From: Candidatus Methylomirabilota bacterium
GTDB lineage: Bacteria; Methylomirabilota; Methylomirabilia; Rokubacteriales; CSP1-6
Direction: 5' to 3'
Length of the DNA: 64,000 bases
Assembly (NCBI GenBank): GCA_035709005.1
Contig: DASTFB010000070.1
Coordinates: 5,223-69,222 of the forward strand
Positions 1-61,035 of this stretch are shown piece by piece. Position 1 is the first letter of the stretch. Every line of letters begins with the position of its first letter. The translations under genes were made by a program, and so were the position numbers. The notes below the pieces were generated by a model. It had not been told where the DNA came from and made no database searches. It saw nothing but the letters and a program-made list of their open reading frames with translations.

Positions 1-347
1 ACGCGAAACGCGAACGCCCCGCTCACCACGTGGCCGTCCGCGGACATCACCACCCACTCCACTCGCCAGGAGCCCGGTCCCAGGGCCGGCGCGGACACCT
101 GCAGGCGGTCGGACGGCCCGCCGGGGCTGATCGCCAGCGTCCGGGCCGCTCCCCGCCCGTCGACCAGGCGCACACGACAGAGCCGCTTTTCCACGCGGTT
201 GTTGAACACCAGCTCGATCACCGACGGGGGATTCGCCGTCTGCGCACCGGCCGGCGGCGAGGACTCCAGCAACAGCGAATGGCCGGCGGCAGCGGCGGGC
301 AGGACGAGCCACAGCGCGCCGGCGAGCAGCGCGGCGGCCGGCGTCAC
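1..347 (-). CDS. CopC-domain copper-resistance-like periplasmic protein, 3' partial (runs off window start)
   Basis: Minus frame is open from a GTG at 345-347 to position 1. Translation ...LLAGALWLVLPAAAAGHSLLLESSPPAGAQTANPPSVIELVFNNRVE... has a signal-like N-terminus followed by a CopC-like HxL...SP..G motif. Overlaps the GNAT gene stop by 4 nt. Confidence 0.4.
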   Translation of the reverse strand, partial: MTPAAALLAGALWLVLPAAAAGHSLLLESSPPAGAQTANPPSVIELVFNNRVEKRLCRVRLVDGRGAARTLAISPGGPSDRLQVSAPALGPGSWRVEWVVMSADGHVVSGAFAFR

Positions 348-1375
348 CGCCAGTCGTCGAGCACCAGGTGTGTGGGGTCCTCGTAATCCTCCTGGCGGCC
401 CCGCTGCATGCGCACCATCGTGAAGTCGACCTGGTACCCCGCCCGGAGCAGCGCGCTGTACGCGGTGGTGTAGCGCGTGTAGACGGGCAGGATGACGCGC
501 TGGAGCCCCAGCTCGTGCCCCTGCTCCTCGAGGGCGGAGATGAACTGCTCGAGGAGCTCGACGCGCCTCTGCTGGGGATCGATGGCCAGATACTTGACGT
601 AGAGCGCGCCCATGGGGGCCTCGCTCACGCCCGGGGTGTGGTAGATCGCGAAGCCGAGCACATCCCGCCCGCGCTCGAGCAGCAGGGTGTCGCCCAGGGC
701 CAGGCCGTCGACGATCTCCACTTCCTTGGCCACGTCCAGACCCCGACAGATCGCGGTGGTGATACGGTGCAGCCGGGGCAGCACCGCCTTCTTCTTGGCC
801 TCCTCGAGCGTGGAGAAGCGCCGGACCGACAGCGGGAGCTTCACCGCCCGGAGCAACGGGGGCCGCCCGTTGTGCTGGTCGAGGGCCCGGCTGGTCACCG
901 CGGCCAGAGCCTTGGGCCGGAACCCCAGCTTGTGGTAGAGCGCGAGGTGCTTGGGGCTCGTGGGGTAGGTCACACAGCCCTGCAGCGCCGTCTTGTTCTC
1001 GTCGAAGAAGTCGAGCACCGCCTGGATGAGCTGCTGGCCGATCCTCTGGTTCTGGTAGTTGGTCAGGACGGCGACCGGCCCCAGGATCCCCACGCTGCCC
1101 CAGGTAACCCCGAGCGCGGCGCCGACGAGCTTGGTGCGGTCCTCCTCGGCCACGAAGCAGCCCCACGGCTCCATGAGCCAGCGGTGGTGCACGTACTGGG
1201 CGCCGCTGAAGGGTTGGCGCGGCCGCGTGCCGAGCTGCCGCTCCAGGAAGTCGCCGAACGTCTGGTCGATGACGTCGCGGACCCGGGAGAGATCCCCTTT
1301 GCGGACACGCCGGACGTGGACCTTGGTGAACCGCCCCTGAGAATCCGCGCCCAGCCGATCGACGGTGGCCCTCAC
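344..1375 (-). CDS. GNAT family N-acetyltransferase (two tandem acetyltransferase-like halves)
   Basis: 343-aa ORF with ...VLTNYQNQRIGQQLIQAV... and ...QGHELGLQRVILPV... segments typical of GNAT acetyl-CoA binding; start/stop overlap the neighbours. Confidence 0.65.
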   Translation of the reverse strand: MRATVDRLGADSQGRFTKVHVRRVRKGDLSRVRDVIDQTFGDFLERQLGTRPRQPFSGAQYVHHRWLMEPWGCFVAEEDRTKLVGAALGVTWGSVGILGPVAVLTNYQNQRIGQQLIQAVLDFFDENKTALQGCVTYPTSPKHLALYHKLGFRPKALAAVTSRALDQHNGRPPLLRAVKLPLSVRRFSTLEEAKKKAVLPRLHRITTAICRGLDVAKEVEIVDGLALGDTLLLERGRDVLGFAIYHTPGVSEAPMGALYVKYLAIDPQQRRVELLEQFISALEEQGHELGLQRVILPVYTRYTTAYSALLRAGYQVDFTMVRMQRGRQEDYEDPTHLVLDDWR

Positions 1376-2256
1376 GCGGAGACACCCGCGAGATCTTCGA
1401 GCAGGGTGATCACCGCGGAGTGGTCGAGCTGCCCCCGCCCCTTGACCCGGAGCGCGTTGAAAAGCTCCTGGACCACGGCGGTGGCGGGAAGCGGCACACC
1501 CAGCGCGCGCGCCGATTCCATGATGAGCCCGAGATCCTTGTAGTGCAGGTCCACCTTGAATCCCGGCCGGTAGCTGTTCTGGACGTAGTTCGGCGTCTTC
1601 TGGTCCAGGGCCCGCGAGCCCGCCAGACCACCGGCCAGCGCCTTGAGGGTCAGCTCGCGGTCCAGGCCGGCCTTCTTGGCGAGCGTCAGCGCCTCCCCCA
1701 GGGCCGTCAGGTTCATGGCCACGATGATCTGGTTGGCGAGCTTGGTGAAGCCGCCGAAGCCGAGCGGCCCCAGATACGTGATGGTCTTGCCCATCGTCGA
1801 CAAGACGGGCAGCACCTGGTCGAACACGGCCTTGTCGCCGCCCACCATGACGGACAGCACGCCGTCGATGGCGCCCTTCTCGCCCCCGGAGACCGGCGCA
1901 TCCAGCATGCGCACGCCCTTGCTCTCCAGCGTCTTGCCGACGTGCTGGGACACGATGGGCGAGATCGTCGACATGTCGATGAAGATCAGCCCCCGGCGCG
2001 CGCCCTCGGCGATCCCGTCCTTGCCCAGGGCGACCAGCTCCACGTCCGGCGAGTTCGGCAGCATCGTGATGAGCACGTCGACCTGCCCGGCCACTTCCCG
2101 CGGCGAGCCGGCAGCCTTGGCCCCGGCCTCCACCAGCTCATCCACCGGACCCCGGCTCCGGCTGTGGACAACCAGTGGGTAACCAGCTTTGAGAAGATTT
2201 CGGGCCATGGGGCGCCCCATGATACCGAGGCCAATAAATCCAATAACTTGCGGCAT
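1372..2256 (-). CDS. NAD(P)-dependent 3-hydroxyisobutyrate / 2-hydroxy-3-oxopropionate reductase family dehydrogenase
   Basis: Internal start MPQVIGFIGLGIMGRPMARNL has the Rossmann GxGxxG motif, plus HIBADH-family conserved blocks (DAPVSGG, KLANQ); the ORF-track start at 2301 is probably too long. Confidence 0.85.
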   Translation of the reverse strand: MPQVIGFIGLGIMGRPMARNLLKAGYPLVVHSRSRGPVDELVEAGAKAAGSPREVAGQVDVLITMLPNSPDVELVALGKDGIAEGARRGLIFIDMSTISPIVSQHVGKTLESKGVRMLDAPVSGGEKGAIDGVLSVMVGGDKAVFDQVLPVLSTMGKTITYLGPLGFGGFTKLANQIIVAMNLTALGEALTLAKKAGLDRELTLKALAGGLAGSRALDQKTPNYVQNSYRPGFKVDLHYKDLGLIMESARALGVPLPATAVVQELFNALRVKGRGQLDHSAVITLLEDLAGVSA

Positions 2257-2327: not shown

Positions 2328-2358
2328 ATCCGGCGCGTAGCGCCGGGGGGGCCCCCGC
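2328..2358 (-). terminator. putative rho-independent terminator after the AOR operon (GC hairpins ccggcgc-tac-gcgccgg and ggggggg/ccccc)
   Basis: Perfect 7-bp stem with 3-nt loop immediately 3' of the AOR stop at 2359, followed by a second G/C hairpin; no U-tract, as expected in a high-GC genome. Confidence 0.35.
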
Positions 2359-4299
2359 TTACCGGCCCTTCGTCCCCCACAGATCCCGGGCCAGCCAGTC
2401 CAGCCCGAGGTCCTTCAGAGTCTGGGGAAGCGGCCTCCCGGTCTTGCGGTCGTAGCCGACCTTGCCGTACCACGTCTCGAGCATCTTCTCCCACTGCTCC
2501 CCGATCGCCTGGCCCTTGGCCGGGCCGTCGTGGGGAGTGGAGCCGTAGCGCACGGACGGGCACTCCTTGTCGACGCCGATGCCGCAGCGCAGGCGGACCG
2601 CTCGGAAGATCGCGGCCGTGCGACGACCGAAGCGCATCGCCTCGTCGGGCGTGTACGGCCAGCCGGTCGCCGCGCTGAGCGCGCGGGCGAGGTTCTCCAG
2701 CCGCGTACGCCCGGTGAAGATACAGATGCCCAGAGAGTCCTCGAAGTGGCGGCGGCCCCGGATGCCGGCGACCTGGGTGGCCACCTCTTCGCCGTTGAAG
2801 GGATTGATGCGCGTAGGCAGGCCCAGCTCGGCCACGTGCACGGGCACGCCGGACTCCAGCGTGCCGGTGGAGCCCGTGCAGGTGTCGAGCATCTCGTCCC
2901 AGCGCCCACGGTGGTCGTGCCCGCGCGGGGAGGCGCCCTGCGCGGTATAGATGGCGGCGTCCCGGGCCGCGCCGCCCAACCGCTCGGACGCCACCTTCAC
3001 GCCCTCGGCCAGCACGTCGCCAAAGCCCTCACGCTTGACCAGCATTTGTAAGAGTTGGTTCGCCCCCTTGATATCGCCCCACTTCAGCTCGAAGCCCAGC
3101 TGATCCCTGGTGATGAGCCCGCGCTCCTGGCACTCCATCACCCAGCCGCACAGCCAGCCGAACTCGTTCACGTCGACGCAGGCCCGGTCGAGCTGGGTGT
3201 TGAGCCAGGAGATGCCCTGCTGATCGGTGGCCCCGATAGTCCAGCCCGCCCCCGACCAGCCCTCGTACTCCGGCTCGTCCACGATGGCGCCCTTGAAGTC
3301 GCCGCTGCGGATGACCTGCATGTGGCAGTGATGCATGCCGCAGGCGTTGCACTGGTGGCCGCGGTGATCGAAGCCCTCGCGCAGCTTGGGCGCCTCCCAC
3401 CGACTCAGGTCGTCATAGGGCACGTTGGTGGTGTAGTTCTTGATCGGCAGCACGCCGAGCTTCCCCAGGTTCACGACGCCGGGCAGCGTCCCGTACTCGT
3501 ACAGCGACTTGGCCGACGGGTCGGTCTTGAGGTCGTGGGCGATGTCGTCGGCGGCCTGCACCACGCCGCGATAGTCGGCGGCCCGCAGGGCCCGCGTGCC
3601 TTTCACGATGGCCACGGCCCGGAGGCGCTTGACGCCCATGACGGCGCCGCAGCCGTTCTTGGAGGCCACGTGGCCGTAGTCGCCGTGGATGGCGGCGAAG
3701 CGCACGAGTTTCTCGCCGGCCACGCCGGAGGTGTACACGGACAGCTGGTGGCCGGTGAGCCCCAGCATGCGGCCCAGCGCGTCCTGGGTCTCCCAGGTGT
3801 CCAGGCCCAGCAGCGGCTTGGCGTCCCGCAGCTCGATCACCTCGTCGTCGATGTAGAGGTAGACCCAGTCCTTGGACTGGCCCTGGATCACGATGGCGTC
3901 GTAACCGCAGTACTTGAGGTTGGTGCCGAAGAAGCCGTTGGCCTGAGTCGAGGTGGGCCCGTTCGTCATGGCTCCGATGGTCACGACGGTGAGGCCGCCC
4001 GTCCCCCACACCGGCAGCCCGGCCAGCGGGCCCGTGGCCAGGACGAGGCGATTGTCGGGATGGTCCCACGACACGTTGCCCTTGCCGCCTCTGGTGCCGG
4101 TTTCCCGGTAGAGGATCAGCGCGCCCAGGCCGGCGCCGCCCAGCCAGTCGCGCATCTCCTGAGGACTCCAGGGCTCGGCCCAGCACTTCTTCTTGGTCAG
4201 ATCGACCCGGAGGAGCTGGCCGGCGTAGGCGCCGGGCAGGCGGGTCGTGGATGCTGCCGTCTTGCTCCGTGGTGCCGCGCTCGTCGTCATCGGGGTCAC
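2359..4299 (-). CDS. aor: tungsten-containing aldehyde:ferredoxin oxidoreductase (AOR family)
   Basis: 646 aa. N-terminus ...AYAGQLLRVDLTKKK... matches the AOR N-terminal domain and the length fits full-length AOR; start overlaps the upstream FAD-oxidoreductase stop (ATGA). Confidence 0.9.
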   Translation of the reverse strand: MTPMTTSAAPRSKTAASTTRLPGAYAGQLLRVDLTKKKCWAEPWSPQEMRDWLGGAGLGALILYRETGTRGGKGNVSWDHPDNRLVLATGPLAGLPVWGTGGLTVVTIGAMTNGPTSTQANGFFGTNLKYCGYDAIVIQGQSKDWVYLYIDDEVIELRDAKPLLGLDTWETQDALGRMLGLTGHQLSVYTSGVAGEKLVRFAAIHGDYGHVASKNGCGAVMGVKRLRAVAIVKGTRALRAADYRGVVQAADDIAHDLKTDPSAKSLYEYGTLPGVVNLGKLGVLPIKNYTTNVPYDDLSRWEAPKLREGFDHRGHQCNACGMHHCHMQVIRSGDFKGAIVDEPEYEGWSGAGWTIGATDQQGISWLNTQLDRACVDVNEFGWLCGWVMECQERGLITRDQLGFELKWGDIKGANQLLQMLVKREGFGDVLAEGVKVASERLGGAARDAAIYTAQGASPRGHDHRGRWDEMLDTCTGSTGTLESGVPVHVAELGLPTRINPFNGEEVATQVAGIRGRRHFEDSLGICIFTGRTRLENLARALSAATGWPYTPDEAMRFGRRTAAIFRAVRLRCGIGVDKECPSVRYGSTPHDGPAKGQAIGEQWEKMLETWYGKVGYDRKTGRPLPQTLKDLGLDWLARDLWGTKGR

Positions 4300-5621
4300 A
4301 CCGCCACCGGGGTGGTGCCGGGCGCCCTGGACGGGCGTCCAAGCACGGTTTCGTCGAGCAGCCGTCGCGTCGTCCCGGACGCGATGTAGGCCGACTTGAT
4401 GTCGAAGGGGTTACGCCGGAGCGCGTCCTTGAAGTGGCCGAGCGCCGTCTGAGTCTGCACCAGGCCCTTGAGCATGCCCACGTCGTTCGTGGTCCAGATG
4501 TCGCGGGACGGCCCCAGGATGATGGCGCCCACGAGGTGATCGCCACGCCACAGCAGCTTGCGGTAGGCCGGCCGGTCCGGCCTGAGCCCGACCATCGCCT
4601 CGGCGCCCTCGTCGTCCCAGGCACCGAAGGACGCGATGTCGAGGTGGCAGACCTCGACGATGTTCATGAGCAGGCTGCCCGGGTAGCGGACGTCCTTGCC
4701 CGCCATGTTGGCGCCGGCCACGCGCCCGTGCTCCTGCGCCGTCGGCTCGATGGCGTGCAGCGCCGGCGCCCCGGACACGCGATCGGGTCCCTCGGCCACG
4801 TCGCCGGCGGCGTAGACATTGGGCACGCTGGCCCGGAGATGGTCATCGACCAGGATGCCCTGCTCGATCTTGATGCCGGAATCCTTGAGCCAGTCGAGGT
4901 TCGTCCGGATCCCCGTGGCCATGATCACGACGTCGGCCTGGATGTCGGGGCCCCTGGCGAAGCGCAGCCGCTTGCGGCCCTTCGCCTCCTCGATCCGCGT
5001 CAACGTGGCGCCGGCGCGGACGGTGACGCCGTGCCGGCGCAGCCAGCCCTCCACGAGCTCGGCGCCCTTGGCGTCGACCATGCGAGGCAGGATGCGCGGG
5101 GCGATCTCCACGATCGTCAGTGTGGCGCCCAGGGCCAGGATGGAGTTGAGGATGGTGAAGGCGATGAATCCGGCTCCCACCATGACCACGTGGCTGCCCG
5201 GCCGGATGTCGGCGATCAGGGCCCGGCACTGGTCCAGCGTCCAGAACGAGTGGACGCCGGGCAGGTCGGCGCCCGGCACCGGGGCCTTCACCGGCGACGA
5301 GCCCGTGGCGATCAGGCAGTCGTCATACTCCACGCTGGTGCCGTCGTCCAGGGTGCACGCGTTGGCCGCCGTGCCGAGCTTGACGGCGCGCCGGCCCAGG
5401 TGCGTCTTCACGCCCCACTGGGCCAGCACGGCCGCGGCCGCCGTGAAGACATGGGACTCGGCGATGGAGCGGTCCAGATAGTACGGGAGCACCATGCGGG
5501 AGTAGGGCTTCTCGACGCTGACCAGCGTGATCTCCGAGCGCTCGCGTTCTTCCTCGCGGATCGTTCGCATCGCGTTCATGCCGGCCGTGCCGCCGCCGAT
5601 GATCAGATGACGCGCCGGCAT
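4296..5621 (-). CDS. FAD-dependent pyridine nucleotide-disulfide oxidoreductase (AOR electron-transfer subunit, AorC-like)
   Basis: Start MPARHLIIGGGTAGMNA is a dinucleotide-binding motif; a second Rossmann block VVMVGAGFIAF follows and AAGDVAEG lies near the C-terminus. Its ATG overlaps the ferredoxin stop at 5621. Confidence 0.85.
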   Translation of the reverse strand: MPARHLIIGGGTAGMNAMRTIREEERERSEITLVSVEKPYSRMVLPYYLDRSIAESHVFTAAAAVLAQWGVKTHLGRRAVKLGTAANACTLDDGTSVEYDDCLIATGSSPVKAPVPGADLPGVHSFWTLDQCRALIADIRPGSHVVMVGAGFIAFTILNSILALGATLTIVEIAPRILPRMVDAKGAELVEGWLRRHGVTVRAGATLTRIEEAKGRKRLRFARGPDIQADVVIMATGIRTNLDWLKDSGIKIEQGILVDDHLRASVPNVYAAGDVAEGPDRVSGAPALHAIEPTAQEHGRVAGANMAGKDVRYPGSLLMNIVEVCHLDIASFGAWDDEGAEAMVGLRPDRPAYRKLLWRGDHLVGAIILGPSRDIWTTNDVGMLKGLVQTQTALGHFKDALRRNPFDIKSAYIASGTTRRLLDETVLGRPSRAPGTTPVAV

Positions 5622-6091
5622 CAGCGCGCCTCCGCCAGGACGCGGCCCATCCGCTCGGCGGCGAAGTCGCCGAGCCAGTCGGCCGTGGGCACGTCCTCGT
5701 AGAGGATGGCCGCGGTGGGGCAGGCGTGGACGCAGGCGGGGTCGCCGCCGCAGAGGTTGCACTTGAAGGCTTTCCGGGTGCCGGGGTCGTAGAACATGGT
5801 GCCGTAGGGGCAGGCGATCGTGCACAGCTTGCATCCAACGCAGAGGTCGTCCACGACGTCCTTCGCCCCGGCGGCGTTGATCGTGATGGCGCCGACCGGA
5901 CACGCCGTCATGCACCAGCCCTCGGCGCACTGCGTGCAAGTGTACGGCGCGTAGGAGGTGTGGCGTTCGAACGGGGACACGCGGATGACCGACTTGGCCG
6001 GCTGGTACGTCCCGGTTTGCATGTACGAGCACGCCAGTTCGCAGCGGAGGCAGCCGGTGCAGCGCTCCGGGATGATTCGAAGGACGCTCAT
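5621..6091 (-). CDS. polyferredoxin with four [4Fe-4S] cluster motifs (AorA-like)
   Basis: 156 aa with four CxxCxxC...CP cysteine blocks (CTGCLRCELAC, CTQCAEGWCMTACP, CVGCKLCTIACP, CNLCGGDPACVHACP). Confidence 0.85.
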   Translation of the reverse strand: MSVLRIIPERCTGCLRCELACSYMQTGTYQPAKSVIRVSPFERHTSYAPYTCTQCAEGWCMTACPVGAITINAAGAKDVVDDLCVGCKLCTIACPYGTMFYDPGTRKAFKCNLCGGDPACVHACPTAAILYEDVPTADWLGDFAAERMGRVLAEAR

Positions 6092-6405
6092 CGCTTCTTT
6101 CGGGCCTTCCCCTTGCCGCCGCCCTCCAGCCGCTCGATGAACTCGTCGAGGGGGATGGCGGCCATCGTCATGCCGGCGGCCCCGCCCCGCGCGCCCACTT
6201 CGACGGACACACGCGAGATGGTGGCGTTGTCCGCCGCCTCGATGACGGTGACGAAATCGTAGGGGCCGAGGACGGCGTACTGGGCCAGCACCCGCGCGCC
6301 CATACGCTCGACGTCGGCGTTGACCTTGCGAATCCAGCCGGGACGCTCCCGCACGACCTTGCGGCCCGACTCCGAGAGCGTGCTCAGCATGATGTAGAGG
6401 CTCAC
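6088..6405 (-). CDS. GYD domain protein
   Basis: VSLYIMLSTLSESGRKVV... is the GYD-family N-terminus; GTG start at 6405 with AAGGAG 7 nt upstream; stop overlaps the ferredoxin start. Confidence 0.65.
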   Translation of the reverse strand: MSLYIMLSTLSESGRKVVRERPGWIRKVNADVERMGARVLAQYAVLGPYDFVTVIEAADNATISRVSVEVGARGGAAGMTMAAIPLDEFIERLEGGGKGKARKKR

Positions 6406-6455
6406 GGCTGGATCTCCTTTCGCAGCGGCCGGTAGTATAACACCGTCCCCTCCGA

Positions 6456-7358
6456 TCACACGGGCGCGTCTTGGCTCGAGGCGCGCAGGAAGTCGTAGAC
6501 CGACGAAAAGTCCTTGCGCCCGTAGCCGTGGGAGGAGGCCAGCCGCAGCAGCAGCTGGGCGGCCGGCGCCACGGCCACCGGCACCCGCAGCTCGCGGGCG
6601 GCGTTGACGGCCAGGCCCAGGTCCTTGGCCATGAGATCCGTCATGAATCCCGGAGCGTAATCGCGGTTGGCCGCCGCCTGCTCCACCATGCCTGGCACGG
6701 GATGGCCGTGCTCCATCACCCAGGTGTTCCCCGACGACCTGGCGATGACCTGGGTCAGGATGCGCGGATCGACGCCGAACCCTTCCGCGATGCGGAACGC
6801 CTCGCTCACCGCCACCATGGCCACGCCGGCGATGAGATTGTTGCAGAGCTTGGCCACCTCGCCGGAGCCCACCGCGCCGACGTGGATGATCGTGCTGCCC
6901 ATGGCGGCCAGGGCCGGGCGGGCCTCCTCGAGATCCATGGGATCGCCACCGACCATGATGGTCAGCGTGCCGGCCACCGCCCGCGGGACCGCGCCCGAGA
7001 CCGGCGCATCGAGGAACCGCACGCCGGCCGAGCGCAGCCGGACGGCCACCCGGCGGGACACCGCGGGATCGATCGTCGACATGTCCACGCAGAGCCGGCC
7101 GCGCGCCACGCCCTCGAGCACGCCGGCGGGACCCAGGTAGGCCGCCTCCACGTGCGAGGACGACGGCAGCATCGTCACGACGAGCTGTCCCTGCTTGGCC
7201 GCTTCGGCCGCCGAGCCCGCCGCGGTGGCGCCCAGCGCGACGGCGGCTTGCAGCGCCGCGGGCGCCACGTCGTAGGCGGTGACCGAGAAGCCGCGGGCCA
7301 GCAGGTTCTTGACCATCGGCTGCCCCATGGTGCCGGTCCCGATGAAGCCGATCTTCAT
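6456..7358 (-). CDS. NAD(P)-dependent oxidoreductase, HIBADH family (second paralogue)
   Basis: MKIGFIGTGTMGQPMVKNL, DAPVSGAVP, GSGEVAKLCNN; AGGAGG Shine-Dalgarno (SD) site upstream of the ATG. Confidence 0.85.
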   Translation of the reverse strand: MKIGFIGTGTMGQPMVKNLLARGFSVTAYDVAPAALQAAVALGATAAGSAAEAAKQGQLVVTMLPSSSHVEAAYLGPAGVLEGVARGRLCVDMSTIDPAVSRRVAVRLRSAGVRFLDAPVSGAVPRAVAGTLTIMVGGDPMDLEEARPALAAMGSTIIHVGAVGSGEVAKLCNNLIAGVAMVAVSEAFRIAEGFGVDPRILTQVIARSSGNTWVMEHGHPVPGMVEQAAANRDYAPGFMTDLMAKDLGLAVNAARELRVPVAVAPAAQLLLRLASSHGYGRKDFSSVYDFLRASSQDAPV

Positions 7359-7474
7359 GACGGCCTCCTTTTGTAGCGGGGTCCGCGAGCCCGGTTCGAC
7401 GCGTGGGTGGCCTGCCCGAGGTGCGTGTGGCTCCGTCTCGTCGTGTCAGCCGTTCGCGTCACTCTGCCCCCCTG

Positions 7475-7879
7475 TTATGGCTTCAGGACCATCTGGGTCT
7501 GGATCGTGATTGACAGCAAGCGCCCGGCTCCGTCCGTGACGCGCGTCTGCCACACCATCGTGGTGCGGCCCCGGTGCAGCGGCGTGCTCTCCGCCCGCAC
7601 CACGCCGTGTTGCCCGGCGGCGAAGAAGTTGGTCTTGGACTCCAGGGTCGCCGTCGACGCCCCCGGCGGCAGATTGAGCATGGTGGCGGTGGCCCCCGCG
7701 ACATCGGCGAGGGTCATCAGGGTGCCCCCGTGCAGCCGCCCGCCCACCGTGCGCAGCTCGTCGCGGATGGCGAGCTCGGCCACCACCCGGTCGGGCAGCG
7801 CTTCCACGAAGCGGATTCCGAGCAGCTCGCTCAGCGTGCCCCGGTGCCGTTCGTCGAGCGCCGTCGGATCGATCGTCAC
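7475..7879 (-). CDS. PaaI-family (hotdog fold) acyl-CoA thioesterase
   Basis: ...LSELLGIRFVEALPDRVVAELAIRDEL...GGRLHGGTLMTLADVAGA... is the 4HBT/PaaI signature; GTG start at 7879 preceded by GAGGAGGG. Confidence 0.75.
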   Translation of the reverse strand: MTIDPTALDERHRGTLSELLGIRFVEALPDRVVAELAIRDELRTVGGRLHGGTLMTLADVAGATATMLNLPPGASTATLESKTNFFAAGQHGVVRAESTPLHRGRTTMVWQTRVTDGAGRLLSITIQTQMVLKP

Positions 7880-8037
7880 GGTTCCCTCCTCACCGGAACC
7901 CCGGCCTGTAATGCTCCGGTGCTCGCCGGCGTCGTGCCGAGCCACTGCTCATCGGCGTCGCCCGTATGGTCATCGTCGGCGCGCTGCTCCTGCTCGCCGC
8001 CCGCACCTTGAATTGGACGAGTTGGACTCGCCCGTGT

Positions 8038-8140
8038 CACACCTCGCGCGAAATGGGGGGGTCTGGAGGGGGCGCGTCTCGTGCCTCCTCCAGGCTAAGA
8101 ATCAGGTCTGAAGGGGGCCTCTGCCCCCTCTGGCTCGATC
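8038..8140. repeat. family-A GC-rich palindromic repeat element (two GGAGGGGGC-N-GCCCCCTCC-like hairpins plus cacctcgcgcgaaatgg arm)
   Basis: Near-identical element recurs at 17553-17660 and, inverted, at 33650-33720. Here it overlaps and supplies the last ~15 codons and stop of the 8095-9153 gene. Confidence 0.8.
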
Positions 8141-9153
8141 GGTCGCGAGACGGCCCGGCTGAAGCAGCAGTTGGGGACCACGCTGGAGTGCTTGCCCGGC
8201 CCGCCGGCGACCACCACCAGCACGTCCTCCGGCCCGGGGACACGCGGCGGCCGGACATCGTCGTCGCGGAGAGCCATCATCCACGGGGGCCAGTCCTGGG
8301 CCCCCCACATGCCCCCGAGCTTCAGCGTCTTGAGTGGCAGCCGCGCGTGCTCGTACACGAAACGCTGGACGTCGGCTCGTCCCAGGCCCTCGGCGGCGAT
8401 GGTCTGCGCGTGCTCGGGACCCAGGACGACGAGCAGCTGGCTCTGGGCCAGGTACCAGCCCACGTTGGAACCCAGCGTGACGGCGGTGTGGGCGACGGTG
8501 GCCAGGATGCCCGCCGCCGTCGTCGACACGTGGTCGTTGATGTTGTGGGGAGCCTCACCACCATACACCGTGACGACGTCGCCGGCGGCCAACGGTTCCC
8601 ACGGCGAGGCAGCCTCGTTCTCGGCGATGCAGTAACTGAACTTGGCGGGACTGCCCTGGGTCGCCATGTCGTGACGACCCGGCCAGGCGCCACCGACGTT
8701 CATGAGGATCAGGCGGATGGCCCGTCCGATCGTCGCGTTGGCCCGAAAGCCCGGCCCGAAGCAACCGCTGCCGGCGTGCAGGCCGATCTCGCGCGCGTAG
8801 GGTCCGTTGACCACGAGCAGGGGCGCCACCGGATGCGTGGTGGCCTGCACGCCGTAGAGATTGAAGGCCGGATCCAGCATGGCCTCCACGGCGGCCACGA
8901 TGACGGGCAGGTGCTCGGGCCGGCACCCGGCCATCACCGCGTTGACGGCGAGCGCCTGCAGGGTGGCTTCATGCCAGAGCGGCGGCATGGGACCCAATGA
9001 GCGGTCGGCGGGAGCGCCGCCCAGCATGGCCCGCACGCGGTCCTCGGTGGGAGGCACGATAGGCAGCCCATCGCACCAGCCCCGCTCGACGAACGCCTCC
9101 AGCAGCGCCTCGGGCGTGTCGTCGACGTCGAGCGTGGCCGCCGACGGCGCCAT
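8095..9153 (-). CDS. conserved partner protein of the UGSC selenoprotein (uncharacterised; homologous to the C-terminal 450 aa of the fused gene at 53337-55007)
   Basis: 352 aa. Blocks ERGWCDGLPIVPPTEDRVRAMLGG / VNAVMAGCRPEHLPVIVAAV / GSPAKFSYCIAENEAASPWEP align with SRGWSDGFPLVAPTERAVAAMLGG / VNSVMAGCAPEHLPLLIAAV / GSPLKYSLCCAENERESPWEP in the second locus; its ATG overlaps the selenoprotein stop. Confidence 0.7.
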   Translation of the reverse strand: MAPSAATLDVDDTPEALLEAFVERGWCDGLPIVPPTEDRVRAMLGGAPADRSLGPMPPLWHEATLQALAVNAVMAGCRPEHLPVIVAAVEAMLDPAFNLYGVQATTHPVAPLLVVNGPYAREIGLHAGSGCFGPGFRANATIGRAIRLILMNVGGAWPGRHDMATQGSPAKFSYCIAENEAASPWEPLAAGDVVTVYGGEAPHNINDHVSTTAAGILATVAHTAVTLGSNVGWYLAQSQLLVVLGPEHAQTIAAEGLGRADVQRFVYEHARLPLKTLKLGGMWGAQDWPPWMMALRDDDVRPPRVPGPEDVLVVVAGGPGKHSSVVPNCCFSRAVSRPIEPEGAEAPFRPDS

Positions 9154-9683
9154 CAGCGCTCACCGAGCAGGCTGAGCAGCTGCTCCACGGCCTGCTGAGC
9201 GCGGCGGACGATGGCCTCGGGCCGTTCGCCGCCCAGCGGGTGCTCCACGACCAGCAGGGGCAGGCCGGCCACGCCCCGGGCGGCGAGCTGGCGGACGGCG
9301 ACCTCCTGAAACGCGGTGGTGGCGATCAGCGCGGACGCGGTTCCGGCCCTGGCCAGCTCGAGGGCGTCGTGGAGACTCCACGACGTGCAGGACCCTCAGT
9401 CCGCGGAGCCGGCGAAGACGACATCGCAGGCTTTGGCCAGCTCGACCACCAGCTCCGCGGGCGCCGGCGACGAGCAGTTCGCCTTGCGCCGGTGGACGAC
9501 GGCCTTGACGCCGTGCCGCTCGCGCAGGAGGCGACCGAGCTCCGTGACCAGGCGGTCGAAGTTCGGCTTGGTGTTGTCGAGAAAGCCCACGGTGAGGTTG
9601 CCGAAGTCGCCGGGCAGCGGAGGCACGCTCACCCGTTCGCTCGCTTCGACCCCCACTGGACTCAACACCCGGATGCGTGGCAT
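9153..9683 (-). CDS. UGSC-motif selenoprotein (in-frame UGA at 9396-9398 read as selenocysteine; ~176 aa)
   Basis: The ORF-track ORF 9396-9713 stops at a UGA. Reading through gives ...VVFAGSAD-U-GSCTSWSLHDALELARAG...LLGER*, with no further stop for 80 codons until a TGA at 9153-9155 that overlaps the next ATG. AGGAGG SD before the ATG at 9683. Same architecture as the fused paralogue. Confidence 0.7.
9365..9385 (-). promoter_or_regulatory. SECIS-like stem-loop ~10 nt 3' of the UGA (RNA CGUCGUGG-AGUCU-CCACGACG)
   Basis: Perfect 8-bp stem (extendable to 10). Position and size match bacterial SECIS elements; the stem is identical at the second locus while the loop differs. Confidence 0.55.
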
Positions 9684-9717
9684 GGGCACCTCCTGGCGTC
9701 CTGATGAGCGCAACGCG

Positions 9718-9939
9718 TCATTGTACTCCGCGGCGAGGCAGCCCGGTGGAGCGCGCCAGCAGCCGTCCCAGCGTGACGTGCAGCTCCGTGAGGATGGAGC
9801 GCTTGACCCGGACAGTGACGGCTTCCACCGGCTCGGCGCTGCCCACGCGATGGATCACCAGGGTCCCCGTGAACTCGTCGGCCCGCTCGTCCACCGCGGC
9901 CAGGCCCCGCAGCGTGAGGACTTCCCACGTCTCGCTCAT
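9718..9939 (-). CDS. hypothetical small protein (73 aa) immediately upstream of the selenoprotein gene
   Basis: ORF MSETWEVLTLRGLAAVDERADEFTGTLVIHRV... ends 35 nt before the selenoprotein start. Weak SD and no recognisable family; may be non-coding. Confidence 0.2.
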   Translation of the reverse strand: MSETWEVLTLRGLAAVDERADEFTGTLVIHRVGSAEPVEAVTVRVKRSILTELHVTLGRLLARSTGLPRRGVQ

Positions 9940-9978
9940 GAGCGGTATGGTACCCCACGTGACGTCAGGCGGATCGCG

Positions 9979-11427
9979 ATGACGGTCGTCGCTCTCGACG
10001 TCGGCACCTCGTCCGTGCGCGCCAGCGTGTACGACGAGACGGGACAGGTGGTGGGCGGGCGCGTGCATCGGGTCACGCTGGCGCCGACGCTGACGCCCGA
10101 CGGCGGGGTCGAGCACGATCCCCGGCGCCTGCTGAGCGCGGTCATCGCCTGTCTGGACGCGGTGGTGGCGGGGCCGCGGGCGCCCGACGTCGCCGCCGTC
10201 GGGATCGCCACCTTCTGGCACGGCCTCCTCGGCTTCGACGCGACCGGCCGTCCGCTCACTCCCATCTACATGTGGGCCGACACCCGCAGCGCCCCCGACG
10301 CGTCGCTCCTGCGCCAGGCCCTGGACGAGACGGCGCTCCACGCGCGGACGGGGTGCCACCTGCATGCCTCCTACTGGCCGGCCAAGCTGCGCTGGCTGAC
10401 CCGCGAGCGCGCCGCCGAAGTCCTGCGCGTCGTCCGCTGGGGATCGTTCGGCGAGTACCTCGACCTGAGCCTCTTCGGCGCGGCCGCCACCAGCATCTCG
10501 ATGGCCTCGGGCACCGGGCTGTTCGATCTGGAGGGATTGCGCTGGGACGTCGAGGCCCTGGCGGCGGCCGGCCTGGAGCCGGACCGGCTGTTCCCGCTCT
10601 GCGATCGCCGGGACGGCCGCCGGGGGCTGCTCCCCGAGTGGTCACGTCGCTGGCCGGGCCTGCGGGGCGCCGCCTGGTTCCCGGCGGTGGGCGACGGCGC
10701 CGCCAGCAATATCGGCTCAGGCTGCGTCGAGCCCAGCCGCATGACCCTCAACCTCGGCACCTCGGCCGCGCTCCGGGTGACCACGAGGGCGACGGCGACG
10801 GCACCCCCGGGCCTCTGGCGCTATCGCCTGGACCGGCGCCTGGGCATGGTGGGGGGCGCCCTGTCGGAGGGCGGCAACGTGTACGAGTGGTGCCGCGAGG
10901 TGCTCCGGCTGCCGGACGACGCCGAGACCGAGCGCGCCCTCGCCGCCGGCCAGCCCGATCGCCACGGCCTCACCGTGTTGCCGCTGCTCGCCGGCGAGCG
11001 CGCACCAGGGTGGCGCGACGATCGGCGCGCGACCGTGGCCGGGCTCGGGCGCGAAACGACCGCGTTGCAGATCCTGCGCGCGTGGCTGGAGGCCGTGGCG
11101 CTGCGGCTGTCGCTCGTATACGGGCTGCTGCGCCCGCACGCCGCCGAACCGCATGTGATCGTCGCCTCGGGCGGGGCGCTGGCGCGCTCGCCCGCGTGGA
11201 CCCAGATCATCGCCGATGCTCTGGGCCACCCCGTCCTGGTCGCCCGCGATCACGAGATGACGAGCCGGGGCGCCGCCCTCCTCGCGCTGGAGGCCCTGGG
11301 CCGCCTGTCCGATTTGGACGGTCTGGCCGTCCCGCCGGGCGAGACGTTCCACCCGGACGCGGCCCGCCACGCCCGCCTGCGCCGGGCGCTCGAGCGCCAG
11401 CGCCGGCTCGACGCCACGCTGGGCTGA
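9979..11427 (+). CDS. FGGY-family carbohydrate kinase (gluconokinase-like)
   Basis: MTVVALDVGTSSVRASVYD... N-terminal FGGY motif; GTSAALRV and GGAL(S)EGG blocks. The ORF-track ORF from 9316 is a spurious 5' extension. Confidence 0.8.
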   Translation: MTVVALDVGTSSVRASVYDETGQVVGGRVHRVTLAPTLTPDGGVEHDPRRLLSAVIACLDAVVAGPRAPDVAAVGIATFWHGLLGFDATGRPLTPIYMWADTRSAPDASLLRQALDETALHARTGCHLHASYWPAKLRWLTRERAAEVLRVVRWGSFGEYLDLSLFGAAATSISMASGTGLFDLEGLRWDVEALAAAGLEPDRLFPLCDRRDGRRGLLPEWSRRWPGLRGAAWFPAVGDGAASNIGSGCVEPSRMTLNLGTSAALRVTTRATATAPPGLWRYRLDRRLGMVGGALSEGGNVYEWCREVLRLPDDAETERALAAGQPDRHGLTVLPLLAGERAPGWRDDRRATVAGLGRETTALQILRAWLEAVALRLSLVYGLLRPHAAEPHVIVASGGALARSPAWTQIIADALGHPVLVARDHEMTSRGAALLALEALGRLSDLDGLAVPPGETFHPDAARHARLRRALERQRRLDATLG

Positions 11428-11458
11428 TCGCCGGAGAGGCCCGCGGTATCATCGGGGC

Positions 11459-12202
11459 ATGGAAGCCGCCTCCGAGGTCGTGGTGGTCGCCGATGCGGCC
11501 GAGCTCGCCGACCGGGCCGCCCAGAGCATCGTCGACAGCGCCCTCGAGGCCGTGGCCGCCCGCGGCCGCTTCATGCTGGTGCTGGCCGGCGGCGACACCC
11601 CGCGCCGAACCTACGCGCGGCTGGCCGCAGCGCCCCGGCGCGACGCGATGCCCTGGGCCAGCACGTTCGTCTTCTTCGGGGACGAGCGCTGCGTGCCGCT
11701 CGACCACGCCGATTCCAACTACCGGATGGCCCGGGAGACCCTGCTCGATCAGGTGCCGCTGCCCTCGGAGCAGGTCTTCGCCATGCCCGGCGACGCCCCG
11801 GATCCGGACGCCGGGGCCGTGGCGTACGCGCGCACGCTGGCCCGGGTCCTCGGCCTTCGTCGCGGCGAGGTGCCCCGATTCGATCTGGTCCTGCTGGGCA
11901 TGGGGCTGGACGGCCACACCGCCTCGCTGTTTCCCGGGTCGCCCGTGCTCAAAGAGATCTTCCGGCCCGTCGCTGCGGTCCACGCGACGGCCGCCGCCAT
12001 CCCGCAGCGCATCACGCTGACCCTGCCCGTGCTCAACGCGGCTACCAACGTCCTGTTCCTGGTGTCGGGCCCGGAGAAGGCCAAGGCCGTGAGGGCCGTG
12101 CTGGACGAGCGGGCCCTGCTGCCCGCGGGCATGGTCCAGCCCGAGAAGGGCCGCCTGGTGTGGATGCTCGACCACGCCGCCGCCTCCCAGCTCCGGCGCT
12201 AG
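11459..12202 (+). CDS. pgl: 6-phosphogluconolactonase
   Basis: RFMLVLAGGDTPRRTY, FFGDERCVP, LLGMGLDGHTASLFPG are Pgl/DevB signatures. Confidence 0.85.
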   Translation: MEAASEVVVVADAAELADRAAQSIVDSALEAVAARGRFMLVLAGGDTPRRTYARLAAAPRRDAMPWASTFVFFGDERCVPLDHADSNYRMARETLLDQVPLPSEQVFAMPGDAPDPDAGAVAYARTLARVLGLRRGEVPRFDLVLLGMGLDGHTASLFPGSPVLKEIFRPVAAVHATAAAIPQRITLTLPVLNAATNVLFLVSGPEKAKAVRAVLDERALLPAGMVQPEKGRLVWMLDHAAASQLRR

Positions 12203-12206
12203 AGCC

Positions 12207-12698
12207 GTGCGGATCGCCATCGGCGGTGACCATCGCGGGTTCGTCTACAAGAACCAGGTCAAGGCTGCGCTGGCCGCGGACGGCCACGCGGTGATCGATT
12301 GCGGCACCGACTCCACCGCCCCGGCCGACTATCCCGACTTCGCCCGCGCCGTCGGCAGCGCGGTCCGTGACGGGAACGCCGACCTGGGCGTGCTGATCTG
12401 CGGCAGCGGCGCCGGCGTCTCCGTCGCGGCCAACAAGATCCGCGGCGTGCGGGCCGCGCTGTGCCACGACCTCTTCACGGCCAGGCAGTCCCGGGAGGAC
12501 GACGACGCCAACGTCATCTGCATGGGCGCCCGGGTGGTGAGCGAGGAGCAGGCCGTGGAGCTCACGCGCACGTTCGTCAGCGCTCGTTTCTCGGGGGCGG
12601 AGCGTCACGTGCGGCGCCTGGCCAAAGTCCTGGCGCTGGAGGCCGCGATGGCGGGCTCCACGGCGTCCCCCCCGAGACCTGGCCCACGGGCTCCGTGA
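12207..12698 (+). CDS. rpiB: ribose-5-phosphate isomerase B
   Basis: MRIAIGGDHRGFVYK...GVLICGSGAGVSVAANK...ANVICMGARV is the RpiB/LacAB signature. Confidence 0.85.
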   Translation: MRIAIGGDHRGFVYKNQVKAALAADGHAVIDCGTDSTAPADYPDFARAVGSAVRDGNADLGVLICGSGAGVSVAANKIRGVRAALCHDLFTARQSREDDDANVICMGARVVSEEQAVELTRTFVSARFSGAERHVRRLAKVLALEAAMAGSTASPPRPGPRAP

Positions 12699-14005
12699 TG
12701 ACCACCGCCCTGGACGAGCTGGAGCGGCGCGCCGTCGGGCCCCGGATCTGGAAGAAGGAGGCGGCGCTCTGGAGCGACGTGGCCCCCGTGCAGGCAGCGA
12801 TCGCCCAGCGTCTGGGCTGGCTCGACGCTCCGGCAGCCACGCGGGGCCACGTCGGCGAGCTCAGCCGGTTCGCCGCCGGGCTGCGCGCCGAGGGCTACAC
12901 GGACGCCGTCCTGCTCGGCATGGGCGGCTCGAGCCTGGCCGCCGAGGTCCTGGCCGCGACGTTTCCGCCGGCGGGGGCCGGGCTGGCCCTCACCATGCTC
13001 GACACGACGGATCCCGGGGCCATCCGGGCCGCCCGCGACGGCCTGGACCTCGCCCGTACCATCTTCGTGGTGTCCTCCAAATCGGGCACGACGGCCGAGA
13101 TGCTCGCCCTCTATCGGTTCTTCCGCGCCGAGCTCGACGCGCAGGTGCCGAACCCGGGCGCGCACTGCATCGCGATCACCGATCCCGGCACGCCGCTCGA
13201 GCGTCTGGCTGCGGACGATCGCTTCCGTCGCACGTTCCTCAATGCGCCGGACATCGGCGGGCGATTCTCGGCCCTGTCCCTGTTCGGCCTGGTGCCGGCC
13301 GCGCTGATCGGCGTGGAGATCGGGCGCCTGCTGGATCGCGCCGCCACCATGGCCGCCGCCTGCGGCCCCGGGATCGCGGCCGCCGACAATCCCGCCCTGC
13401 GGCTGGGCGCCGCGCTGGGCGGAAATGCCCGCGCGGGACGCGACAAGGTCACCCTCGTGCTGTCGCCACCGATCCGCGCGTTGGGCGCCTGGCTGGAGCA
13501 GCTCCTGACCGAGTCGACCGGCAAGCAGGGCCGCGGGCTCATCGTCGTGAACGAGGAGCCCCTCGGGACCCCGGAGGTCTATGGCGGCGACCGGCTGTTC
13601 GTGGCGCTGAGCCTCGGCCCCGATCCCGACCTGGCGGGCCGACTGGCAGCGTTGCAGGCGGCGGGACACCCCGTCGTTCACCTTCCCCTGACCGACCGCG
13701 TGGACGTGGGGGGCGAATTCTTTCGTTGGGAGCTCGCCACGGCCGTGGCCGGCGTGCTGCTGCGCTCGTGGCTCCTGGAGCTCACCGCCGACGTGCTGGC
13801 CACCGATCCCGAGCTGAGCGCCTGGGTGGAGGACTCCGGGGAGGGGCGCTGGACCGTCCAGGACGCGGTGGAAAAGGCCGTGCCGGCGCCCGCCATCACC
13901 GCCGCCCTCTTCGCGCGCTTCCGCTCGCGCCGTGAGAACTCCTTCGCCGACCGCCTGCTCGCCGCGCTGCGCCGCGCCTTCGGGGGCCATGCCGTCCGCC
14001 GATGA
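12698..14005 (+). CDS. pgi: glucose-6-phosphate isomerase-like SIS-domain protein
   Basis: Internal ATG MTTALDEL...; LLGMGGSSLAAEV and FVVSSKSGTTAE are the PGI/SIS motifs. ~435 aa, shorter than classical PGI. Confidence 0.75.
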   Translation: MTTALDELERRAVGPRIWKKEAALWSDVAPVQAAIAQRLGWLDAPAATRGHVGELSRFAAGLRAEGYTDAVLLGMGGSSLAAEVLAATFPPAGAGLALTMLDTTDPGAIRAARDGLDLARTIFVVSSKSGTTAEMLALYRFFRAELDAQVPNPGAHCIAITDPGTPLERLAADDRFRRTFLNAPDIGGRFSALSLFGLVPAALIGVEIGRLLDRAATMAAACGPGIAAADNPALRLGAALGGNARAGRDKVTLVLSPPIRALGAWLEQLLTESTGKQGRGLIVVNEEPLGTPEVYGGDRLFVALSLGPDPDLAGRLAALQAAGHPVVHLPLTDRVDVGGEFFRWELATAVAGVLLRSWLLELTADVLATDPELSAWVEDSGEGRWTVQDAVEKAVPAPAITAALFARFRSRRENSFADRLLAALRRAFGGHAVRR

Positions 14006-28240: not shown

Positions 28241-28243
28241 TTA

Positions 28244-28408
28244 TAGGGTGCGGGCACCCGGGCTTCGCCACGCCCGTGCCCCGCCGCGATCACCCGCGGT
28301 GGTGATTCGGTTGCGCTGCGTGCGTCGCGACATCACAGGGTGCGGGCACCCGGGCTTCGCCACGCCCGCACCCCGCCGCGATCACCCGCCACGGTTGCTC
28401 GGTTGCGG
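28244..28408. repeat. family-B repeat, two tandem ~72-bp copies in the imuB-dnaE2 intergenic region
   Basis: agggtgcgggcacccgggcttcgccacgcccgtgccccgccgcgatcacccgc... occurs twice (28244-28315, 28337-28408) with a 21-nt spacer. Confidence 0.7.
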
Positions 28409-28450
28409 GGCGTGCGGCCCGACTTCGGGCGCCACGCCCGTGGCGCGCCG

Positions 28451-29953: not shown

Positions 29954-30498
29954 CGGGTGACGTCAGAGGGGACGACGCCGCCCAGGGAGCCGCGCCCGCG
30001 GAGCAGGCGCACGGCCGTGCCCACGCGGGCCAGGCGCGTCGGCGCGCCGCGCGGACCGCTCCACTCCAGCGACCGCCGGACGGCCTGGACGGCCAGCGCC
30101 GCGCCGGGACCGGCGATGCGCCGACTCGCCAGGATGAGCAAGGCCGCGCCCGACCGGCGAACGGCCAGCCGCAGTCGGAATGCGAGCGTGAGAGGCAGGC
30201 GCGGCGGACGCTCGCCGACGTCGAGCGCGACGACCGTGAACCCGGGGCACCGCACGAGACGATCAGCCACGCGCAGCGCGACATCGTGACGTCCGCCGCA
30301 ACGCACCCACAGCAGGCGCCGGAGATTCACCCCGGCGCGCGCGGCGGTCGAGGGATCGAAGGCGTGGTCGGTGTCTACCAGCGCGGCCACCGCCCCGCGC
30401 TGCGTGACTTCGCGCAAGCAATCGACGAGCAGGCTCGTGCGTCCGGACGACGGCGCACCGACGATCTCCGTGATCTCGCCCGGCACGATCATGCCCAT
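29938..30498 (-). CDS. imuA: ImuA (RecA-fold SOS cell-division-inhibitor-like protein)
   Basis: ...EITEIVGAPSSGRTSLLV... Walker-A-like ImuA motif; overlaps imuB by 16 nt. Confidence 0.65.
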   Translation of the reverse strand: MGMIVPGEITEIVGAPSSGRTSLLVDCLREVTQRGAVAALVDTDHAFDPSTAARAGVNLRRLLWVRCGGRHDVALRVADRLVRCPGFTVVALDVGERPPRLPLTLAFRLRLAVRRSGAALLILASRRIAGPGAALAVQAVRRSLEWSGPRGAPTRLARVGTAVRLLRGRGSLGGVVPSDVTRWWTA

Positions 30499-42654: not shown

Positions 42655-42796
42655 GCAACTCCGATGCCGCGCGAATCGCGTGGGTCAGCCGATGCTCCGA
42701 CCGCCCGTGGGAAACGAACTGCCCAGGCTGGGGAGAAACATCGTCGCGTCGGGCCCCCACGCGCGTGGTAGGATGCAGCCCGCCGCGGAGGCGATC

Positions 42797-43279: not shown

Positions 43280-43280
43280 C

Positions 43281-61025: not shown

Positions 61026-61035
61026 GGTGACGCGA

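Follow-up and report, generated by a model that had tools for sequence, protein, structure and literature searches.

Here, we describe a gene cluster for a predicted metallopterin oxidoreductase of the aldehyde oxidoreductase (AOR)/WOR superfamily, located on a 64,000-nucleotide stretch (the window) of contig DASTFB010000070.1 from a Candidatus Methylomirabilota bacterium. Five minus-strand open reading frames (ORFs) between positions 7358 and 2359 were gene-like, with a strong bias in GC content at third codon positions, and the ORF list and Pfam placed all five at the positions, and with the domains, that an earlier sequence-only reading of this DNA had given them. In order of transcription, these encoded a 3-hydroxyisobutyrate-dehydrogenase-like dehydrogenase of the HIBADH family (6456..7358, 300 aa; Pfam NAD_binding_2 and NAD_binding_11), a GYD-domain protein (6088..6405, 105 aa; PF08734, with GTG 6405 as the corrected start), an AorA-like polyferredoxin (5621..6091, 156 aa) with 16 Cys in four [4Fe-4S] motifs, an AorC-like FAD/NAD(P) oxidoreductase (4296..5621, 441 aa; Pfam Pyr_redox_2) and an AOR/WOR-superfamily catalytic subunit (2359..4299, 646 aa; AFOR_N and AFOR_C). 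The dehydrogenase passed the HIBADH equivalog TIGR01692 (NCBIfam) with 323 bits against a cut-off of 291.6.

These had been described as five translationally coupled genes; the start sites supported four. The ATGA at 6091/6088, in which the ferredoxin start overlaps the GYD stop, was found as described, as were the TGATG at 5621, where the true start of the flavoprotein is the ATG overlapping the ferredoxin TGA, and the 4-nt overlap of the flavoprotein and AOR genes at 4299/4296, which was found again in 37 of 60 related loci. The overlap claimed at 6456/6459, between the dehydrogenase and a GYD gene starting at 6459, is an artefact of choosing the longest ORF. An AAAGGAG Shine-Dalgarno site is located at 6420-6414, 8 nt 5' of the GTG at 6405, GYD orthologues are 104–107 aa long in most database gene calls, and the PF08734 domain starts at residue 22 of the long form, three residues past the GTG 6405 start. 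Thus, the GYD gene was assigned to 6405-6088, 50 nt past the dehydrogenase stop and without overlap with it, and the dehydrogenase itself has its own Shine-Dalgarno site (AAGGAGG) preceding the ATG at 7358. Hairpins had also been proposed 3' of the AOR stop, and a GC hairpin with a perfect 7-bp stem (CCGGCGC-TAC-GCGCCGG; 2330..2346, minus strand) was indeed present there, but it lacks a U-tract and its region folded with no more stability than shuffled sequence (z = -0.52). A Rho-independent terminator after the AOR gene was considered and rejected, as a terminator scan called none in 10 kb and the fold resembled that of shuffled sequence.

The ferredoxin, flavoprotein and AOR genes together mirrored the composition of the AorABC complex, as had been proposed, and among solved structures the small and medium subunits matched AorA and AorC best. 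The ferredoxin matched AorA (8c0z_C) with E = 3e-49 and 60% identity, with 16 of 16 Cys aligned, and its next matches in the Protein Data Bank (PDB), 9mqx_E and the WOR5 small subunit, were well behind. The flavoprotein matched AorC (8c0z_E) at full length, with E = 2e-74 and 38% identity (residues 4-416 vs 2-416), followed by PDB matches of around 1e-37. Against the NCBIfam models for PadH and PadI, the flavoprotein scored 249 bits, below the cut-off of 475, and the ferredoxin matched the N-terminal part of PadI, far below the cut-off of 700. The AorABC reading is right for both accessory subunits, but it fails for the catalytic subunit.

The 646-aa subunit belongs to the AOR/WOR superfamily by full-length matches to PF02730 (6.5e-54) and PF01314 (3.4e-73), but no member of known structure was particularly close. 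Identity was ~30% to each of Pyrococcus furiosus (Pf) AOR, AorB, the 9MQX WOR and WOR5, and in the PDB search Pf AOR (227.6 bits) and AorB (226.6 bits) scored equally, with BamB far behind. In an exhaustive search of 1.84 billion cluster representatives (50% identity), at least 150 scored at or above the level of Pf AOR and AorB (lowest listed, 229 bits), and the nearest full-length representatives among the matches listed were only 45% identical. To locate the active-site residues, the query was aligned with six Rokubacteria homologues, 119 full-length representatives and four PDB sequences rebuilt from HMMER alignments. Pf AOR, AorB and the 9MQX WOR have in common Thr243, Cys288/291/295, Glu311-Tyr312-Glu313, Tyr427, Arg444, His448, Tyr452 and Cys494 (Pf AOR numbering), and in aldehyde-oxidising AOR members the second-shell residues Thr243, Glu313, Tyr427 and His448 are conserved, with deviations in WOR4, WOR5/ASOR, BamB and YdhV tied to altered function (PMC12096430). 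The query and its relatives at 36–45% identity keep Thr243, Glu311-Tyr312-Glu313, Cys288, Cys291 and Cys494, but carry His at Tyr427, Thr at Arg444, Glu at His448 and His at Cys295. The pterin-side arginines were replaced as well in the query group (R76 to G, R182 to H and R186 to K).

These changes were uniform among the Rokubacteria homologues. The PRGHDHR motif, with His at 427, and the EPEYE motif were present in 118 of 118, Arg444, His448 and Cys295 were replaced in all 118 full-length homologues or in all of those sampled, and the D-S-x-G-x-C motif with Cys494 was kept (D-S-L-G-I-C here). The Fe-S cluster region reads C-N-A-C-G-M-H-H-C in the window protein, such that one of the four cluster Cys positions holds His and the other three remain Cys. 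Position 295 was His in 20 of 23 non-Rokubacteria members, and the residue following it was Cys in only 13 of these 23; thus, the His at 295 is the conserved residue.

In neighbour-joining trees, a clade of 20 sequences with His, Thr (or Ile, Val) and Glu at positions 427, 444 and 448 stood apart from every one of the 33 canonical sequences in 40 of 40 bootstraps. A broader group defined by the signature alone was recovered in just 40 of 60 bootstraps, and the narrower clade was therefore used. WOR5 fell among the sequences outside this clade, away from the query. The claim that the catalytic subunit is AorB-like was thus not borne out: by tree position, by its ~30% identity and by its His/Thr/Glu signature, it is placed in a separate, uncharacterised AOR/WOR clade, here called HDHR. 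A scan of metagenomes with the clade alignment, which worked through generic patterns, returned mostly canonical AORs that served as contrast only. The BamB-type alternative raised in the sequence-only reading was excluded, as BamB (4z3w_A) matched the N-terminal domain only (residues 24-246, 121 bits); similarly, the YdhV model NF007354 gave 150 bits against a cut-off of 868, over the N-terminal part only. Unlike in BamB and YdhV, where Cys is a metal ligand, the EPEYE region has no Cys, as judged without a BamB sequence aligned at the Cys column. Membership in the GAPOR, GOR or WOR4 groups appears unlikely, since the sampled clade members are bacterial with organic-acid gene contexts, and since the Tyr/His region, which does not align for GAPOR, aligns here, whereas GOR retains all four second-shell residues (PMC12096430).

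The closest homologues of the catalytic subunit (74–93% identity among the best 120 of 2127 hits) came from Candidatus Rokubacteria/Methylomirabilota. We retrieved 80 genome loci at 70–94% AOR identity, nearly all labelled Rokubacteria or Methylomirabilota, and counted synteny of the GYD gene over the 70 with sufficient upstream sequence. The GYD, ferredoxin, flavoprotein and AOR genes were contiguous in 60 of these 70. Thus, the GYD gene inside the operon, which had been called unusual, is no oddity of the window, as it stands directly 5' of the ferredoxin gene in those same 60 loci. Over the 60 loci, mean identity to the window proteins was 82% for GYD, 86% for the ferredoxin, 76% for the flavoprotein and 77% for AOR, indicating that the GYD protein is as constrained as the enzyme subunits. 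The conserved neighbourhood also reaches past the AOR gene, to a second HIBADH-family gene on the same strand (1372..2256, 294 aa), which is tartronate semialdehyde (2-hydroxy-3-oxopropionate) reductase-like by TIGR01505 (NCBIfam; 387 bits, cut-off 340.75), and then to a GNAT acetyltransferase gene (344..1375, minus strand, 343 aa; Pfam Acetyltransf_1/7/10) that overlaps it by 4 nt. This dehydrogenase-GNAT pair was present in nearly all Rokubacteria loci, and the two genes were always paired.

Other genes recurred around the Rokubacteria loci. An Amidohydro_3 gene was located between the AOR gene and the dehydrogenase-GNAT pair in several loci (L018, 10171-11943; L027, 10003-11514; L046, 11036-12556; L063, 10909-12507), and an amidohydrolase gene was also found in L084 (1728-2936), the locus of the nearest non-Rokubacteria relative; this amidohydrolase may be part of the same pathway. 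A 352-aa minus-strand ORF at 8095-9153 with coding-like composition had no Pfam, NCBIfam or PDB match, yet most Rokubacteria loci carried it, at 70–90% identity, upstream of the AOR neighbourhood, and a 32%-identical homologue lay near a canonical AOR in locus L169. In one CSP1-6 Rokubacteria locus (L064), a DMSO-reductase-family molybdopterin oxidoreductase gene (5940-8069; Molybdop_Fe4S4, Molybdopterin and Molydop_binding) directly followed the AOR gene. Literature searches for Rokubacteria with AOR or tungsten found nothing relevant.

Outside Rokubacteria, we examined the contexts of ~20 HDHR-clade members from metagenomes and metagenome-assembled genomes, at 36–45% identity to the query. 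None of these ~20 loci had a neighbouring gene of the AorA-like, AorC-like or GYD type. Small MoaD/ThiS-like ORFs with GG at their end, analogous to aorD/aorE, adjoined the AOR gene in five of them (L082, 6697-6912; L084, 5700-6005; L086, 4265-4480, minus strand; L092, 5572-5892; L094, 777-1016, minus strand), and similar small ORFs in L087 and L089 ended in GA and DG. The contexts included genes connected with organic acids (TctABC, thiamine pyrophosphate (TPP) decarboxylase-type enzymes, PrpD/PrpF and SdhAB-like proteins), among them TctABC transporters with a TPP enzyme in L081 and L088 and an SdhAB-like pair in L085, as well as an OYE/FAD protein in L083 and a ModA/TupA-type ABC transporter in L086. 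For the TPP enzymes of L081 and L088, an identity as glyoxylate carboligase was considered, since this would have favoured tartronate semialdehyde, but it was rejected, as they were generic acetolactate-synthase-like proteins, all below cut-off. HIBADH-family genes flanked both sides of the AOR gene in L084, and one in L085 passed TIGR01692. In contrast, L137 was a canonical locus with the NRGxxH motif and the ferredoxin-AOR-flavoprotein order expected of AorABC. Since the clade loci outside Rokubacteria lack the module genes and L137 shows the canonical order, the Rokubacteria operon is a hybrid of an HDHR-clade catalytic subunit, an AorA/AorC-type electron-transfer module and GYD.

The GYD protein is a clear family member, scoring 80.1 bits against PF08734 (gathering score 31.4, E 1e-22) over profile positions 1-89 of 91, with a GPYD motif, a linker rich in Gly and a basic tail, RKKR, at the C terminus. 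Mean column identity in an alignment of 31 orthologues was 87%. An AlphaFold2 model (pLDDT 79.8) had a beta-alpha-beta-beta-alpha-beta, ferredoxin-like fold, for which Foldseek returned generic ACT/RAM-type domains only (TM ~0.5, E ~1e-3), including the NikR C-terminal domain, Lrp/AsnC RAM domains and the PGDH ACT domain; sequence and profile searches of the PDB with the GYD protein gave nothing significant. A role as MoaD substitute was rejected, as the fold is ferredoxin-like rather than beta-grasp and the GGG stretch is neither C-terminal nor invariant. GYD is conserved and probably a dispensable accessory of the module, and the resemblance of its modelled fold to ACT/RAM domains suggests a possible role in regulation, through binding of small ligands, or in assembly; alternatively, it may be an extra subunit. 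A full-text literature search for the GYD domain gave a single incidental mention and no described function for the family. Its association with an AOR-type operon seems to be previously unreported, and this module is the first consistent genomic partner for the domain.

Overall, we consider it probable from gene content and homology that GYD, AorA-like, AorC-like and AOR proteins form a Rokubacteria-specific module, built like AorABC, whose pterin enzyme (containing W or Mo) would oxidise carboxylated aldehydes or semialdehydes and pass the electrons to NAD(P)+. The substrate would be oxidised at a bis-metallopterin site of the 646-aa subunit, and electrons would exit via its proximal Fe-S cluster, probably ligated by three Cys and one His, to travel along the polyferredoxin with its four [4Fe-4S] clusters to the FAD in the AorC-like subunit and finally to NAD(P)+, a path that we infer from the structure and biochemistry of AorABC (PMC6365974; bioRxiv 10.1101/2023.01.23.525143). 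The flanking beta-hydroxyacid dehydrogenases would generate acid semialdehydes that the module would oxidise irreversibly to dicarboxylates. Carboxylated aldehydes would be the most likely substrates because dehydrogenases of the HIBADH and tartronate-semialdehyde-reductase types flank the module and HIBADH-family genes also adjoin the AOR genes of two independent relatives outside Rokubacteria; these recurrent neighbours suggest methylmalonate, malonate or tartronate semialdehyde as candidates, for which the proposed oxidation of glutaric semialdehyde by FOR sets a precedent (PMC12096430).

The sequence-only reading had proposed a reversible aldehyde/acid conversion coupled to NAD(P)H, of which the reductive direction is thermodynamically implausible. 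The acid/aldehyde couple lies at about -580 mV, compared with -320 mV for NAD. According to PMC6365974 and PMC9295118, the Aromatoleum AOR reduces acids only with very low-potential donors. Given these potentials and this donor requirement, an NAD-linked reaction would effectively be a one-way oxidation.

Several observations weigh against oxidation of carboxylated aldehydes by a GYD-containing module. Members of the uncharacterised HDHR clade, which have lost the catalytic Tyr and His, could carry out a chemistry other than aldehyde oxidation. With His in place of Cys295, the cluster may be of the [3Fe-4S] type found in WOR4 instead of a [4Fe-4S] cluster with a His ligand. The trees were calculated by neighbour joining on p-distances and left out GAPOR, GOR, WOR4 and YdhV references. 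The distance of the upstream dehydrogenase gene to the GYD gene varied from ~0 to >4.5 kb in related loci, HIBADH association outside Rokubacteria amounted to 2 of ~20 contexts, and 10 of the 70 Rokubacteria loci had the ferredoxin, flavoprotein and AOR genes without GYD. A Pfam scan of 49 window ORFs (0.3–62 kb), with four gene-like ORFs outside the scan, detected no Moa, Moe, Mob, Tup or Mod genes.

Other explanations account for parts of these data. The operon would encode a true AorABC orthologue, i.e. a broad-spectrum NAD-linked tungsten aldehyde oxidoreductase for aldehyde detoxification, on a reading favoured by the AorA and AorC matches of the accessory subunits and by the catalytic subunit, which has full-length AFOR_N and AFOR_C domains and keeps Thr243 and Glu311-Tyr312-Glu313. 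Broad aldehyde oxidation persists even in distant AOR clades, and the Tyr-to-His change at 427 is also found in Clostridium formicoaceticum AOR and in WOR5 (PMC12096430). However, we regard orthology as improbable, given the replacement of His448, Arg444 and Cys295 throughout the Rokubacteria homologues, the position of AorB, Pf AOR and WOR1 outside the clade in 40 of 40 bootstraps, and the different gene order without aorD/E, to which the canonical L137 locus provides the contrast; nowhere in the window did a small ORF combine a coding-like frame with GG at the C terminus, as expected of a MoaD-like aorD/E. The same residue changes can be read in another direction, as signs of a reductase or of a non-aldehyde chemistry in which electrons from NAD(P)H would run via FAD and the chain of Fe-S clusters into the modified pterin site, acting for example on a hydroxy-acid, oxo-acid or sulfonate. 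Such a departure would parallel the differing reactions of BamB and WOR5/ASOR. Second-shell changes go with new chemistry in the family, since BamB and YdhV lack these residues and ASOR has the Tyr-to-His change (PMC12096430), and here three second-shell positions, R76/R182/R186 and the Fe-S ligand are changed; amidohydrolase and GNAT genes also recur in the neighbourhood. This, too, seems quite unlikely to us: Glu311-Tyr312-Glu313 and Thr243, which are central to the proposed AOR mechanisms, are invariant, the EPEYE region lacks a BamB/YdhV-type Cys ligand and similarity to BamB and YdhV is confined to the N-terminal part, and NADH cannot drive reductions at AOR potential without bifurcation, for which no module of the HydABC or Bfu type is encoded here.

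A separate question is whether GYD has any functional link to the enzyme. Its absence from those 10 Rokubacteria loci and from all ~20 clade loci outside Rokubacteria, and the lack of a specific structural match beyond generic ACT/RAM folds, would fit a small neighbour kept by operon inertia, or one with an unrelated regulatory role. We hold this to be possible, though not the expected case: in 60 of 70 loci, at 70–94% AOR identity, the gene is on the same strand with its stop overlapping the ferredoxin start or no more than ~50 nt from it, and its mean identity is at least that of the catalytic subunit. Beyond the oxidation of carboxylated aldehydes by an AorABC-built module that we favour, we tentatively raise the further and rather speculative proposal of a new class of NAD(P)-linked metallopterin enzymes, with an HDHR subunit that has recruited AorA and AorC, a His-ligated cluster, a His/Glu-rich site and GYD in the role of fourth subunit, assembly factor or ligand sensor, acting on carboxylated aldehydes or catalysing another reaction. 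If true, the GYD family would gain a functional context and the HDHR clade an assigned activity, in both cases for the first time, and the new class would operate in largely aerobic soil bacteria.

The interest of the locus rests mainly on its hybrid architecture, on the re-tooled active site with His replacing a Cys ligand and on the partnership with GYD. The NAD-coupling AorA/AorC module appears not to be tied to AorB, as it is joined here to a catalytic subunit of a separate clade, and the hybrid occurs widely across Rokubacteria, a soil phylum that is abundant and uncultured, in tight linkage with the GYD domain, which has no assigned function. The AOR family's W/Mo enzymes are of biotechnological interest, as few other catalysts reach the acid/aldehyde potential. 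Many clades of the family are still purely hypothetical according to a 2025 review (PMC12096430), and this locus offers a concrete candidate for substrate assignment.

Elsewhere in the window, two adjacent minus-strand ORFs at 53337-55007 matched Pfam UGSC over profile positions 1-87 and 105-171, separated by an in-frame TGA at 54716-54714 that falls exactly at the U of the U-G-S-C motif (read-through ...VGTTND*GSCTSW...); by this alignment, the region is probably a single selenocysteine-containing gene. A mutagenesis cassette on the minus strand (24545-30498) comprised imuA-like (RecA fragment), imuB-like (IMS family) and dnaE2-like (Pol III alpha, 1231 aa) genes, and residues 776-885 of the DnaE2 homologue matched Intein_splicing. 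A third HIBADH-family gene (43281-44189, plus strand) lay directly 3' of a RidA/L-PSP gene (42680-43279), together spanning 42680-44189. A divergent sugar-phosphate cluster on the plus strand (9316-15467) encoded an FGGY kinase, 6-phosphogluconolactonase, a PGI-like protein and glucose-6-phosphate dehydrogenase; taken as its longest ORF, the kinase carries a long extension at the N terminus. On the minus strand at 59679-61950, a cytochrome P450 gene (448 aa) adjoined a multi-haem c-type cytochrome gene (304 aa).

Among characterised systems, the module shares its three-subunit architecture with AorABC of Aromatoleum aromaticum EbN1 (8C0Z) and with the three-subunit AOR of Moorella thermoacetica. 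Like AorABC, it combines a pterin/Fe-S catalytic subunit with a tetra-[4Fe-4S] polyferredoxin (60% identity) and a FAD/NAD subunit (38%), and the predicted path from pterin through Fe-S clusters and FAD to NAD+ would be the one set out in PMC6365974 and bioRxiv 10.1101/2023.01.23.525143. Unlike AorABC, its catalytic subunit belongs to another clade, with ~31% identity to AorB and altered positions 427, 444, 448 and 295; the gene order is GYD-A-C-B rather than A-B-C; and the operon, in a host of a Rokubacteria soil lineage, has a GYD gene 5' of the module and no MoaD-like aorD/E, whereas in Aromatoleum aorA-aorB-aorC are followed by the MoaD-like aorD/aorE, as PMC6365974 describes. WOR5/ASOR of Pyrococcus furiosus (6X6U/6X1O) likewise pairs a catalytic subunit with a four-cluster polyferredoxin, and it shares the replacement of Tyr427 by His, the loss of a conserved pterin-side Arg and a non-Cys ligand of the proximal cluster, which is Asp in WOR5 and probably His here. 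However, identity is 29%, and WOR5 keeps the His448 equivalent, is archaeal and ferredoxin-linked and has no FAD subunit. PadH/PadI of the NADH-dependent phenylglyoxylate dehydrogenase (NF045765/NF045766) represent the same type of NAD-coupling module, but the scores here were far below the cut-offs and the partner in that system is a 2-oxoacid:acceptor oxidoreductase rather than an AOR. FOR (1B25/1B4N), which matched the catalytic subunit more weakly (176 bits, partial), is an AOR-family enzyme whose proposed physiological substrate, glutaric semialdehyde, is also a carboxylated aldehyde (PMC12096430), but it is a homotetramer without extra subunits and keeps all four canonical second-shell residues. 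With its GPYD motif, the 105-aa protein that precedes the module is most readily compared with the GYD family PF08734, to which it clearly belongs.

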